A stretch of DNA of 55,309 nt, the filler included, from Basidioascus undulatus (taxonomy: Eukaryota): NCBI GenBank assembly GCA_000826855.1. It is 5 parts of 5 records of this genome, joined end to end, with 100 filler letters (N's around TTAATTAATTAA, not from the genome) between each part and the next. Parts side by side here need not be neighbours in the genome. Positions count along the whole stretch, not along the records: positions 33,261 to 44,240 come from JTLS01001060.1; 4 more parts are not named here. The stretch is one strand, 5' to 3'. This document shows, in pieces, positions 33,316 to 41,026 of this stretch (position 1 is its first letter; each line of letters opens with the position of its first letter). Under the pieces are notes generated by a model that saw nothing but the letters and a program-made list of their open reading frames with translations, was not told the DNA's origin and ran no database searches. The position numbers were made by a program, and so were the translations under genes.

Positions 33316-35271
33316 ATGAAGTTCACCTTCACCACCGTCGCCATCGTCGCCCTCTCCGCCTCCTCCATCGCGTTCCCCCTCCTCCAATACGACGCTGCCT
33401 CCCCAAGCGTCTCCCGCCGCTGGGCAGCGCAGTCGCTCGCCGCCCGCGCACCCGCCCAGACGGCTCCCAAGAAGGCTGAGCCTATTAACATAAAAAACGA
33501 CGTTGCTGTACGTCCTATCATGTGCTCATTTCACAAGTCTGTTACTGACCGTGAGCCATCGACGCAGATCGACGCCCAGATCACGCTGTCGGACTTCGAG
33601 CACGACGCTATCAAGACCGGCCGGAAGGGAAAGAAGAGCAAGCGCTCACTGTCGCGCCGCGACGAGTATTCTGGTGACGACTCCGACTTCGACTACGACG
33701 ACGACTCGGACGAGTACTCGGAGGACGAGGTCGAGTACGTCGAGGTCGAGTTCCACCACGGGGGGTACTGGGGCAAGGACGAGGGCAAGTGCAACCAGTA
33801 CTGCCAGAAGAACGAGTGGTCAGTTCCTCCTTTCACTTTTCAATCTCATTTTCGTGAAGTCTGACACTGGGAATGGGATTCCAGGCAAGAGTGGAAGGAG
33901 GAGAAACACGAGTGCGGGAAGAAGCCCGAGTACAAGTATGTCAAGGAGCTCAAGAAGTACGTGCCCAAGAAGGAGTACTGCCAGAACGAGGAGGAGTGCT
34001 ACAAGCCAGAGAAGGAGAAGTCACCCGCCAAGCCCGAGTACAAGGAGGAGGAGAAGCCCGAGTACTACGAGAAGCCCGAATACAAGCCTCAGTACAAGCC
34101 CGTTGAGTACAAGCCGGAATACAAGCCCGAGTACAAACCTGAGGTCGAGTGCGTGGAGGAGAAGCCCGAGTACAAGGAGCAGAAGGTCTATTACGAGCAA
34201 AAGAAGGAGGAGAAGAAGGAGGAGAAGAAGGTCTATTACGAGCACAAGGAGTACAAGCGGCCCGTTGAGGAGTACAAGCCCGCGCCCAAGTACGAGGAGA
34301 AGAAGCCGGAGGTCTACAAGCCGGCTCCCAAGTACGAGGAGAAGAAGCCCGAGTACTACGAGCACAAGCCGGAGAAGAAGCCTGAGTACTACCCGAAGCC
34401 CAAGGAGGAGCACAAGCCAGAGCACGAGTGCTACGAGAAGGAGTGCAAGCCTGAGCACGAGTACAAGCCTAAGCCGGAGTACTACGAGAAGCCGAAGGAG
34501 GTGGAGCACAAGCCTGAGCACAAGCCGGTCGAGCAGAAGCCTTACTACGAGAAGCCGAAGGAGTACAAGCCGGTGGAGAAGAAGCCCTACTACGAGGAGA
34601 AGCCTAAGAAGGAGATCAAGCCCGAGGAGGAACGTGAGGAGGAGAAGCCCGAGCACAAGCCCAAACAGCCCGAGCACAAGCCCGAGGAGGAGTGCGAGGA
34701 GGAGTGCGAGGAAGAGAAGCCCGAGTACAAGCCGAAGCCCGAGTACAAGCCGAAGGAGGAGTACAAGCCCAAGCAGCCTGAGCACAAGCCTGAGGAGGAG
34801 TGTGAGGAGGAGAAGCCTGAGTACAAGCCCAAGGAGGAGTTCAAGCCCAAGGAAGAGTACAAACCCAAGGAGGAGTACAAGCCCGAATATAAGCCTAAGG
34901 AGGAACACAAGCCCAAGCCTGAACACAAGCCGGAGGAGGAGTGCATCGAGGAGAAGCCCGAATACAAGCCCGAGTACAAGCCCCGACCCTTCTACTACCA
35001 GGAAGAGAAGCACGAGTACAACGAGAAGCATGAGTCCAAGAAGTTGGGCTTCGGCCAGGCACCTCGCGCCGAGTGCCCCAAGAAGGAGTGCGGCCACGGT
35101 GCGGAGTGGAAGGAGGAGATGGGGTGCGAGACTGTGTGAGTTTTCAGCAACCAATCCTTCAACAGAGAGTCGAACCAAACCGACTGAAATCCCCCATCTC
35201 GCAGGTGCACGCCTGGCCATCAGTCTGACATGAAGTGGGAAGGCGAGAAGGAGGTGCACACTTGCTATTGA
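33316..35271 (+). CDS. Secreted repeat protein A (~586 aa): signal peptide, one amphipathic KR-delimited module, acidic linker, long EYKP/Cys-containing repetitive tail
   Basis: Exons 33316-33507, 33568-33818, 33885-35135, 35205-35271 splice in frame; MKFTFTTVAIVALSASSIA signal peptide; PINIKNDVA|IDAQITLSDFEHD...KSKR; many KPEYKP/KPEHKP/EEECEEE repeats. Confidence 0.85.
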
Positions 35272-35535
35272 GGCGCATTATCCCCTCCTTTTGTGTCCTC
35301 TTCAGAATAGACTTCTCGGTTTCACCTTGTATCCCACCGCAACATTGTCTTATTCCCTCAGCATTGTTTTCCTGTGTTCTACGCGCACTCCCAAAATGCC
35401 ACATTTGCTGCATTTCGCTGATCCTCATTGAATCTCGTTCAATACTCCGGCCCAGCAGCGTTGAGACAGCCCATCAAATAGTGATACATTAATGTCGAGC
35501 AAAAACAGGGTAGGCCTGACTTCTGGTGCAAGGAC

Positions 35536-36603
35536 TCAGTGCCTGGCCCAAATCGATGCGGGGCAGTTAATCCAGTTGACGGCGTGAGCGAGACGGCATG
35601 CCTTCCAGGTCTGCAGTCGTCCTTGCAAAATGAACCCCTGATGCTGAACTTGACAGGGTATACCATCTGGATCTTTAATTTTCCCACTTCCCTTGAAAAC
35701 GGAATGAGATGTTCTTAACTTCCTGGCTTTGGTCTGTAGCACGACGTGCAGTGTCGTGGTGCGTGGATGGCTGAGCGTGAACAGCGAGCTATCATGTAGG
35801 TCTTTCTGAAGCACTGAGAGCCAGCGGAGCTGCGGCATAGTGAGGAGGTCCGCTGAAGTAACCGACATGCCCGCAGGCAAGCACAAGCCAAGCTGCAAGA
35901 TGGTCGCACCGACATGTTTTAGCCCAAGCGGCACAAGACCGGTGTCGGCTCCTTGGGACAATAGCTCGAGCCGAACCATGGACGGTAAAGTTGCTTCGAG
36001 CAGGGCCTGCTGAGCTGAGAAGCAAGGAGTCCCGCGTTGCGTAATCCAGAACAGTTGCTTCAATCGTGATAGCAGCAGGCCCGTTAAGCGGTTCAGTGAA
36101 GTGTAAACCCCAGATCTTCGTGATAGTAGCAGTCGAGCGATGAAGGGCCATCGTTAGTTTGGCATTGAAGCACTTGCAGCGTTGAGACGCCCAGGCTAGG
36201 TCGTGAAGGGTTGTCAGAGACGGCACGATGTCGAAAAGTCGCTTGAGTCTCGTTGAGGACACGAATGGATAGAAGGGGCCGGAACCAGGAAAGTCGATTA
36301 GAATGAGCGACGCGTGGGCAAGCCCGAGGAGCTGCTGCTTGTGAAGGGCGTCGATGAGCTTGGCGCAAGTGTGCTCCGAGTTCAGCTCTATAGAGCGATA
36401 GAGGTGCTCCAGAGCGAAGGGCTGCCTAAGAGAAGGGCTAATGTCCAGTCAGAGGGCGTGAGGCTACCTCGACCCAGGCGATCCTCACCGTCCACGCCTT
36501 GCAGACGAGTGCGTACTGGAGCTTGTCGGCGGGGGACGCACCCGTCGTGGCGAACCCGAGAAGAGGGAACCAGCTCGAGAGGGGTGCTTGTGCTGTCGGA
36601 CAT
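35536..36603 (-). pseudogene. F-box / LRR-like protein gene with at least two frameshifts
   Basis: MSDSTSTPLELVP/(frameshift)LLGFATTGASPADKLQYALVCKAWT|PFALEHLYRSIEL F-box pattern, then LRR-like IVPSLTTL and MPQLRWLSVL in different frames. Confidence 0.6.
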
Positions 36604-38987: not shown

Positions 38988-39092
38988 TCGTCCTCTTTCT
39001 CTCATCTGATCCAGCTGCTTTGTCCTCTTTCTCTCTTCTGGTCCAGCTGCTTCGTCCTCTTTCTCTCATCTGATCCAGCTGCTTCGTCCTCT
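38988..39092 (+). repeat. 32-bp tandem repeat (3.3 copies) upstream of repeat protein B
   Basis: TCGTCCTCTTTCTCTCATCTGATCCAGCTGCT at 38988, 39020 (3 mismatches), 39052, partial at 39084. Confidence 0.9.
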
Positions 39093-39162
39093 CCTCGCCT
39101 ACCGGACTACTCTCCACTTTCTACGACATTCACACTCATTTACAGGGATCAGGCTCTTTGAA

Positions 39163-41026
39163 ATGCGCACCAACCTCGCTACCTTCTCGGTGGTCTCCCT
39201 CTCGGCATCCGCCATCGCAGCGCCTCTCCTCAGCGTCGCCGGGGCAGCCGTCGCTGGAAGCGCCCTCACCGCCCGTCAGGCCAAGCAGAAGCCCCAGCCC
39301 ATTAACATAAAAAATGCAGTGGACGTACGTGAAAAATTAGAGCCTCTAGCCAAATACACGCTCGGCCCAGCTGATCCCGGCTCCTTACCCCTCCCCAAAG
39401 ACGAATTTGAACTTCATGCTCTCCGAGTTCGAGCACGAGAACTTTGGGCACTTCGGGCATGGCAAGAAGAACAAGCGCCAGATCAAGCAGAAGCCCCAGC
39501 CCGTCAACATCAAGAACGATATTGATGTTCGTGGCCCTCACCTCTGGAAATTACTCCATTCTGGCAACTGGCAATCGCGACTGACACTCTTCACTCGTAT
39601 TCTCCGGTCCTATTTCAGACGAACCTCCAATTTAATCTCTCTGAGTTCGAGCACGAGAGACTCGGGCACCGCGGCCACAAGCGCGGCAAGCGTGCGGTCA
39701 CGAAGGCGCCGAAGAAGACGCCGACGGCGGTCAAGGGTGGCTCGGACTCGGAGTCCGACTTCAAGCCGATCAATATTCTCAATCGCGTGCAGGAGGACGC
39801 TTTCATCACCCTCTCCGAATTCGAGAACGACCACCTCGAGGACAAGAAGAAGGTCAAGAAGTACCGCCGCTCGCTGGACGCTCGCCAGGCCAAGCAGAAG
39901 CCGCAAGAGATCAACATCAAGAATGCCGTCGACGTACGCGTCTACTTTCATCTACTATTCTGTAGATGTAGGCTAGCTGACTCCCGCCCCTGATCCCGCC
40001 GGCAGACCAACGTCGACTTCGTCCTCTCCGAGTTCGAGCACGAAAACTTCTCTCATTTCGGCCATGGCAAGAAGACCAAGCGTGATTCTGCCACAGACAA
40101 GCCTGTGGTGATACATAATCTCGTTGATGCCGACATGGACTTCACCCTTTCTGACTTCAACAACTACCAACACGGCTTCAAATCCGCCAAACCCAAGAAG
40201 CCCAAGCGCGACCTCAAGAAGCCGCAGCCACTGAACATCAAGAACAGCGTCGACGTGAGCCGCCCATTTTCACATTCCCATCTCTTCTGAACACTGGCTG
40301 ACAACTGCTGTGCATCTTGAAGACAAACCTCCAATTCACCATGTCCGAGTTCGAGCACGAAAGTATCAAGCACGGCAAGAGCAAGCGCTCCCTCGCTGCC
40401 CGCCAGTCCAAGGAGAAGAAGAACACGCCAATTAATTTGAAAAACCAAGTGGATGTAGGTGGCCGTGACGTTCATCTCATATTCTCCCAGAGCAGCTGCT
40501 CAGTAACAGCCGAATGCACAGGTGGACGCCTTCATCACTCTCTCCGAATTCGAGCACGACTCTATCAAGCACGGCCGAAAGGTTAAGAAGTCGAAGCGTG
40601 ACTACTCGTCTGACGACGAGTCGGAGGAGGAAGTCGAGGTTATTGAGATTGAGCAGGGGCACGAGTGCCACCACGAGTAAGCTTCTTGCACCTGATTTAC
40701 TTAGACTAACTCATCAAAGCTAATTCTTTACCCCAAATAGGTGCCAGAAAAAGCCTGAGTACCAGCCTAAGTGTGAGGAGGAGAAGTGCCACCACGAGTA
40801 CAAGCCAGTGCACGAGTACAACCCTGTCCACGAGTACAAGCCCAAGTACGAGGAGAAGAAGGAAGAGAAGAAGGTGTACGAGGTGAAGGAGGAGGAGTAG
40901 GTCCAGCTCTCTTTCTCAACGCTTAGCCATCCGCTGATCACACCACCATGCAGCTGCAAGGAGGAGAAGCCCAAGATCCACGTCGAGGAGTACAAGCCTT
41001 GCGAGCACGAGTGCAAGGAGTACTAG
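39163..41026 (+). CDS. Secreted Kex2-processed repeat protein B (~455 aa): signal peptide, seven KR/RR-delimited modules, short EYKP/Cys/His tail
   Basis: Exons 39163-39324, 39401-39526, 39619-39933, 40006-40254, 40323-40454, 40522-40676, 40741-40896, 40954-41026 splice in frame to TAG; module consensus P(I/V/L)NIKNxVD-TNLxFxLSEFEHE...K(K/S/T/N)KR. Confidence 0.88.

Follow-up and report, generated by a model that had tools for sequence, protein, structure and literature searches.

The DNA analysed here, referred to as the window, is a 55,309-nucleotide stretch from Basidioascus undulatus (assembly GCA_000826855.1), which consists of five pieces of ~10.98 kb joined by four N44-TTAATTAATTAA-N44 linkers. 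The fourth piece (33261-44240, from JTLS01001060.1) contained two related genes, which we have designated gene A and gene B. This piece (~11 kb) was taken as the only genuine context of the two genes and nothing was linked across the joints. The DNA was eukaryotic and fungal in style, with GT..AG introns of 57-92 nt and CTGAC/CTAAC-like branch sites. The models of A and B were built by hand from canonical GT..AG introns and branch sites and were checked by translation. Both genes are predicted to encode secreted pre-pro-proteins in which an N-terminal part made of one or more similar modules, each ending in a dibasic site, is followed by an acidic tail. The coordinates of A, B and the other features of the window are given in Table 1.

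Table 1. Features of the two genes, their neighbours and the joints of the window (positions count along the whole window; aa, amino acids).
Feature	Position	Strand	Remarks
Gene A	33316..35271	+	exons 33316-33507, 33568-33818, 33885-35135 and probable last exon 35205-35271; 586 aa
A signal peptide	33316..33372	+	19 codons, SIA end; by inspection, hydropathy consistent
A single module	33433..33645	+	SLAAR to KSKR; split by intron 33508-33567; 74% core identity to B module 7
A acidic D/E/Y/S linker	33646..33750	+	counterpart in B at 40600-40653
A tail	33751..35268	+	E/K/P/Y-rich; tandem repeats with 12-96-nt periods
Gene B	39163..41026	+	8 exons, 455 aa
B exons	39163-39324, 39401-39526, 39619-39933, 40006-40254, 40323-40454, 40522-40676, 40741-40896, 40954-41026	+
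B signal peptide	39163..39219	+	19 codons, AIA end; by inspection, hydropathy consistent
B array, seven modules	39277..40599	+
B1	39277-39324 + 39401-39478	+	KR end
B2	39479-39526 + 39619-39693	+	KR end
B3	39694-39870	+	RR end
B4	39871-39933 + 40006-40083	+	KR end
B5	40084-40209	+	KR end
B6	40210-40254 + 40323-40388	+	KR end
B7	40389-40454 + 40522-40599	+	KR end
B tail	40600..41023	+	101 aa; acidic linker, then Cys/His/Tyr-rich segment; introns 40677-40740, 40897-40953
32-bp tandem repeat	38988..39092	n/a	3.3 copies, 91% matches; ends 71 nt upstream of B ATG
Spliced transcribed gene	36230-36674		contig of a transcriptome-like run (X3) skips 36425-36487
Two-HMG-box gene	37067..38200	-	Pfam HMG_box_2 E=1.6e-7 and frame reading; 5' end approximate
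PXA-domain (sorting-nexin-like) gene	42839-44240		downstream of B; spliced X3 contigs at 42839-44180
Linkers	10990-11089, 22078-22177, 33161-33260, 44241-44340

The reading frame of gene B was open only when its seven GT..AG introns (76, 92, 72, 68, 67, 64 and 57 nt) were removed. The encoded protein contained an array of seven modules that ranged in length from 37 to 59 residues. When these were aligned with the module of A as eight units, the last Arg was invariant and formed one of only three invariant columns of the alignment. The residue before this final Arg was Lys in seven modules, that of A included, and Arg in B3, such that the dibasic sites of the B modules all fell in one alignment column. 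The B array contained 8 KR/RR pairs, compared to 3.0 expected from shuffling (P=0.005). Cutting B in silico after KR/RR yielded fragments of 61, 38, 3, 59, 47, 42, 37, 48 and 101 aa, within which the seven alignable modules were found. The residues immediately following the KR sites were QI, AV, SL, DS, DL, SL and DY. The predicted module peptides were basic, with a pI of 9.2-10.7 before terminal trimming, and most windows of the module core had a larger hydrophobic moment of the beta type than of the alpha type. The B tail had a net charge of ~-16.5 and was 83 aa long if counted from the end of the acidic linker. In total B contained 25 His, and CX3-5C pairs were present in the tails of both A and B. 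The 32-bp tandem repeat upstream of B sits in the promoter or 5' leader of this gene, and contigs of both DNA runs described below break there.

Gene A encoded a single module, followed by an acidic linker and a long tail with 27% E, 21% K, 13% P and 11% Y and a net charge of ~-35. This tail was 496 aa long when counted from the KR of the module and 461 aa when counted from the end of the acidic linker. It contained 17 Cys, mostly in CX3-5C pairs, and some of its tandem repeats were 85-100% alike. In the 496 residues there were 2 KR/RR pairs, against 1.3 expected by chance, despite the 21% Lys. As KR/RR was at chance level in the A tail, the dibasic enrichment is specific to the module ends. 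The 3'-end of gene A can be read in two ways; a stop at 35137-35139 would give a product of 565 aa from three exons. A third intron (35136-35204) followed by a short last exon is more likely, because intron 7 of B appears to be its counterpart, with the same phase 2 and a Cys codon directly after it. The final exons of both genes were short (21 and 23 codons) and ended Cys-(x)-Tyr.

By their alignment and intron positions, A and B are true paralogs with opposite proportions. The sequence-only reading of this DNA had described them as co-oriented and 3.9 kb apart, which agreed with the gap of 3,891 nt obtained with the 586-aa model of A. The elements that it listed as common to both proteins were all found again. 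The signal peptide was 19 residues long in each, ending SIA in A and AIA in B, and the LxAR site occurred four times, once in each of the two pro-regions and once ahead of each of B modules 4 and 7. The acidic linker was found in both proteins, as were the tail motifs; the decapeptide EEKKEEKKVY occurred once per protein and EYKP occurred 16 times in A and 3 times in B. The closeness of the A module to B module 7 was also borne out, with a core identity of 74% compared to 46-61% to the other B modules. Composition-corrected BLASTP aligned residues 31-93 of A with residues 298-357 of B (57% identity, E=1e-15) and the N-termini of the two proteins (A 1-138, B 1-120; E=2e-13).

The tails alone showed no significant similarity after composition correction (E=0.019 and 0.098), and the homology of the tails therefore rests on colinearity and on the position and phase of the introns. 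Intron 1 of A was of phase 0 and lay inside the module, as in B, and intron 2 was of phase 2, like intron 6 of B. As all three introns of A match introns of B in position and phase, and the tails are colinear, the whole genes are judged to be homologous. The architecture proposed earlier, of one module in A and seven in B, was retained; the tail lengths given with it (~430 and ~75 aa) were too short, as the tails measured 496 and 101 aa from the module end, or 461 and 83 aa from the linker end. It had also been proposed that after duplication each copy expanded the opposite half. The opposite proportions are real, but with no outgroup obtained from any of the searches, expansion in one copy and contraction in the other look the same, and the change may have gone either way.

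A phase-0 intron was found at one and the same position in five of the seven B modules and in the A module, immediately downstream of the PINIKN-x-V-D half. The two modules without it, B3 and B5, were also the ones that diverged most. These same-position introns indicate that the B array grew by duplication of an exon-intron unit. On this reading, tandem duplication of the unit would have produced the array, and short tandem repeats would have produced the tail. The module introns themselves were essentially unalignable, with 4 of 45 intron pairs reaching z>2.5, two of which were between module introns (z 2.5 and 2.6). In the 28 module pairs the synonymous difference was 0.39-0.97 per site and the non-synonymous difference 0.12-0.43, both measured over a 23-codon ungapped block that is short and noisy. 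The unalignable introns and near-saturated synonymous sites indicate that the module duplications are old. Judged by these differences the peptide sequence of the modules is under selection, which argues for a sequence-specific role rather than for mere filler. The 85-100% likeness among repeats of the A tail indicates that this tail changed more recently than the modules.

No relatives of A or B were found in the searches made. A profile of the 8 module units gave 0 matches at E<=0.001 against a library of 1.84 billion representatives, in which the presence of Rep1 of Ustilago maydis was unconfirmed. A word-indexed search with the A tail scored 7999 candidates, none of them at E<=0.001, and a word-indexed search of longer proteins with B exon 3 gave 147 candidates, none of which scored. 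Metagenome contigs searched by single-exon protein returned 508 pattern matches and no relative, and the 54 loci obtained from metagenome contigs with a degenerate 20-nt motif included none (0/54 by tblastn) that encodes a relative. Five exon translations compared with Pfam gave nothing above threshold, searches of the PDB by sequence and by profile gave 0 matches and the ESM Atlas gave no usable match. A literature search for A/B motif strings returned only an unrelated Arabidopsis paper. The strings were also absent from the text supplements (3 and 4 files respectively) of two surveys covering repeat proteins processed by Kex2 (KEPs; PMC7329392 and PMC6339444). As a control, the PXA-domain open reading frame (ORF) from the same piece matched Wallemia proteins with 51-56% identity. 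The library therefore holds fungi, apparently without a close relative or the proteome of this genome, and the orphan status may partly reflect sampling. In the data searched, then, the family is an orphan, lineage-restricted one as far as sequence comparison can tell. This status fits the KEP class, since the available text of one survey reports 2560 surveyed KEPs as stand-alone, with no homologs (PMC7329392).

Further copies of A and B were sought in the other four pieces of the window (tblastn with A and B against the whole stretch) and none were present. Two DNA runs, each from a different study (X1 and X2), supplied contigs that were aligned to piece 4. Of 49 X1 contigs on the piece, 17 were >=99% alike, and 9, 11 and 12 were 95-99%, 90-95% and <90% alike. 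The divergent contigs had depths of their own and their joints recurred in both runs (33387 to 33705, 33792 to 34996, 34562 to 34775 and 39438 to 39795). Two contigs in each run matched from 33313, which is 3 bases before the ATG of A, and were unlike the stretch upstream of this point; two X2 contigs diverged from 35137 onward. At 33762, the depths of four variant contigs and the exact ones summed to 228 in X1 and 547 in X2. With a single-copy flank depth of 17.8 and 47.8 respectively, this gives an inferred A-like sum of ~11-13x single-copy, to be read with the proviso that summed contig depth is not copy number. B-like sequence was also present in extra copies, at 1.3-1.8x single-copy depth. 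These depths indicate that A-like genes are amplified in this genome. Since several additional loci resembling A or B were seen in both runs, the two genes are part of a family and do not simply form a pair.

The exact matches also differed in depth along the piece. Contigs exactly matching A had ~3-3.8x the depth of B and the flank in X1 and ~2.5-3.4x in X2, and the depth of 35085-37073 was ~2x in both runs. The exact-match depth (X1/X2) was accordingly stepped, at 54-67/118-162 over A (from 33406), 32-37/90-93 over 35085-37073 and 14-18/48-55 over 37044-43899, and the contig breaks coincided with these steps. Steps of this kind suggest that gene A lies within a nested segmental duplication or within a repeat that the assembly has collapsed. 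The latter is possible for the A segment, and the linkage of A and B would then depend on the original assembly alone. The contigs listed tiled the 33-44 kb stretch without spanning it. In-frame indels were seen in the A tail repeats of X2 contigs, with 12 nt lost at 34683 and 3 nt gained at each of 34707 and 34774; these indels represent differences in length among strains or among paralogs.

Fungi commonly encode KEPs, and pheromones, Rep1 repellents, candidalysin and ustiloxin-type toxins are among their known roles. To our knowledge, very few have a known function. In the available text of the surveys, a KEP is defined by a signal peptide and repeats separated by Kex2 sites (PMC7329392), and is recognised in silico when KR/RR cutting yields at least four fragments of which at least three are alike (PMC6339444). 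Both A and B begin with a putative signal peptide, seen by inspection as an M-K/R start, a hydrophobic run and SIA/AIA at residues 17-19. B fits this definition and resembles known KEPs in having this signal for the endoplasmic reticulum, no later membrane segment and seven similar KR/RR-bounded fragments, where three to four similar ones are asked for. It differs from them in the intron that interrupts five of its seven modules at one shared position, in the acidic Cys/His/Tyr tail after the array, in having a single-module paralog and in lacking a STE13-type dipeptide signature after the sites. Taken together, A and B probably belong to an amplified orphan family whose pre-pro-proteins are secreted and processed at dibasic sites.

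In the predicted pathway, removal of the signal peptide would be followed by cutting in the Golgi by the dibasic endoprotease Kex2, on the C-terminal side of the KR or RR at the close of each module. The products of B would then be seven peptides of 37-59 residues and, from the C-terminus, an acidic piece of 101 residues rich in Cys, His and Tyr. Each peptide would have a basic N-terminus, two alternating polar/apolar stretches around PINIKN and LSEFEHE and a region rich in His and Gly, and would end in basic residues; cutting at LxAR or KR would leave Gln as the first residue of four of the seven. From A, a single peptide of this kind would be freed, together with an acidic, probably disordered E/K/P/Y polypeptide of ~490 residues. 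Our best guess at the function, made by analogy with the Rep1 repellents of Ustilago, is that these peptides and the polypeptide are extracellular and associated with the wall or surface; a signalling, antimicrobial or host-directed role of the peptides is almost as likely.

Several observations weigh against this assignment. A, with its one module, does not by itself yield the repeated fragments by which KEPs are recognised. The modules of 37-59 aa are long for the class, in which the commonest size reported for Dikarya is 9-24 aa (PMC6339444, available text). Lys is abundant around the sites, so that some of the KR pairs could be due to chance. An AlphaFold2 model of B exon 3, made without an alignment, had a mean predicted local distance difference test score of 64, with no confident fold and no beta structure; its sole helix lay over a basic linker. 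Cleavage and secretion of A and B are predictions from sequence, and the gene models were likewise drawn from the genomic DNA. The comparison with Rep1 is one of layout, as the profile search described above brought out neither Rep1 nor any other protein as similar in sequence.

The abundance of Lys also bears on whether the proteins are cut at all. A and B could instead be intact, largely disordered repeat proteins that are secreted or bound to the wall and act as an adhesive, a spacer or a metal-binding material, with the basic stretches serving as charged linkers. The K-rich context, in which 3.0 of the KR/RR pairs in the B array are expected by chance, agrees with this, as do the abundance of His, Glu and Cys (25 His in B, CX3-5C pairs in both tails) and the low AlphaFold2 confidence throughout. 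The position of the pairs argues otherwise; all eight modules end K/R-R at one aligned position despite near-saturated synonymous divergence, and the A tail, for all its Lys, has only 2 KR/RR where 1.3 are expected. We therefore consider uncut proteins unlikely. A third possibility retains the cutting and makes B the precursor of a peptide made on the ribosome and modified after translation (RiPP), of the ustiloxin/dikaritin type, each module enclosing a short core. The signal peptide and Kex2-separated repeats are also the layout of ustiloxin-type precursors, according to the available text of the KEP survey (PMC7329392). Conservation extends along the whole ~35-residue module and not over a short core, and the modules have no conserved Tyr-x-Ile core. 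None of 14 open frames (107-236 aa, 35.5-44.2 kb) matched DUF3328 (UstYa) or tyrosinase, although the context is ~11 kb, intron-split genes could escape such a scan and a DUF3328-type neighbour is reported for only 22% of KEPs (PMC7329392, available text). A RiPP precursor is very improbable on this evidence.

The sequence-only reading had gone further and proposed a two-component coat, in which the B peptides form fibres and the charged A tail a cross-linkable matrix on spores or hyphae. The charges of the parts are complementary, with basic peptides on one side and tails of ~-35 and ~-16.5 on the other, and the alternating residues of the module core could form amphipathic beta-strands. The A tail, with 11% Tyr and paired Cys, is cross-linkable in principle, and by analogy the Rep1 peptides are reported to form amyloid fibrils on aerial hyphae (PMC3133707, available text). 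Against an exclusive partnership, A and B have two unrelated genes between them, and the A-like sum of ~11-13x single-copy in both DNA runs, together with the B-like copies, leaves no exclusive pair. Each gene already has both module and tail and neither needs the other, and the AlphaFold2 model has no beta structure. A coat of two dedicated components is accordingly rated as rather improbable. A looser form of the idea is a charge-complementary material, in which basic ~40-residue B-like peptides and acidic, Tyr/Cys-rich A-like polypeptides would condense on a surface and be oxidatively cross-linked through Tyr and Cys. We regard this too as a long shot; if true, this fungus would have a coat or adhesive that follows the principles of mussel and plant-wall proteins and is unrelated to hydrophobins and repellents.

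Secretion and processing at dibasic sites, which we favour, can be compared with several known systems. Rep1 of U. maydis has a signal sequence and 12 repeats that give rise to ten peptides of 34-53 aa and one 229-aa product, as given in the available text (PMC3133707). B shares with it the signal sequence, a Kex2-bounded array of ~35-55 aa peptides and one larger terminal product, and the B peptides likewise have amphipathic-strand potential. We know of no E/K/P/Y tail in Rep1. Proteins of the Hum3, Rsp1 and Rsp3 type join a Kex2-site repeat moiety to a different secreted part (PMC7329392, available text), which is also the arrangement in A and B. Rsp3, which decorates hyphae, is described as polymorphic in length (PMC5923269, available text), and the in-frame 3- and 12-nt indels of the A tail in X2 contigs are similar in kind. 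The comparison with the Hum3, Rsp1 and Rsp3 type is one of layout, and A differs from it in having no hydrophobin domain, as it has no CC pairs.

Other structural proteins rich in Tyr, Lys and Pro are the plant proline-rich wall proteins, the mussel foot proteins and the PEVK region of titin. The A tail is like these in composition only, with Pro/Lys/Glu/Tyr repeats, probable disorder and cross-linkable Tyr, and this is an analogy; no sequence relationship was found in Pfam or the PDB, and organism and cellular context are different. Three further classes were considered and rejected. The eight-Cys pattern of hydrophobins (C-CC-C-C-CC-C) did not fit, as neither A nor B had a CC pair. A wall protein linked through glycosylphosphatidylinositol (GPI) or of the PIR type was rejected as the C-termini were charged, with no GPI-like hydrophobic end and no PIR/DGQ motif. 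Ser and Thr were low (together 4.6% in A and 10.3% in B). The lack of a GPI end, PIR motif and CC pairs and the low Ser+Thr content imply that the usual wall-anchoring routes and the hydrophobin fold do not apply. An alpha-factor-type pheromone precursor, with repeats of 9-13 aa and STE13 XA/XP dipeptides, was rejected on the 37-59 aa length of the B modules and on the mismatch of the dipeptides that follow KR.

The KEP class is already known; the A/B family is new and is Rep1-like in layout. It is a tractable case, as the modules are long and old yet conserved, array length has been traded for a Tyr-rich acidic tail in one paralog and the family appears to have been multiplied in one genome. 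If the peptides or the tail help to build the cell surface, hydrophobins and repellents would be joined by a third kind of surface-coat protein in fungi; otherwise the family would be one more set of orphan KEPs. A, B and their paralogs merit annotation as secreted pro-proteins, since prokaryote-style ORF calls fragment them meaninglessly.

A and B were not adjacent, as two unrelated transcribed genes lay between them. Evidence for transcription came from a third run (X3), made from the same sample as X2 and recorded as "DNA?". X3 behaves like a transcriptome, because its contigs skip the introns of the neighbouring genes and these joints are not found in the DNA runs. In the HMG-box gene, X3 contigs skipped four introns (37262-37342, 37637-37720, 37894-37958 and 38074-38135; GT..AG on the minus strand). 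The N-terminus of this protein was Arg/Ala/Ser-rich, like a mitochondrial presequence, and the gene probably encodes a mitochondrial DNA-packaging protein. A mating-type reading was rejected on account of the two HMG boxes and the presequence-like N-terminus. The ORFs scanned in the second intervening gene (36230-36674) had no Pfam match.

Among the X3 contigs listed, none was >=95% alike to A or B, which is not evidence that these genes are silent. One X3 contig, with a depth of 29.6, encoded a B-like IKN, nine further codons and then a B-like LSEFEHE, with the site of the module intron uninterrupted. A spliced transcript from a paralog resembling B would account for this contig. Across the window as a whole, GC content varied between the pieces from 47 to 65%.

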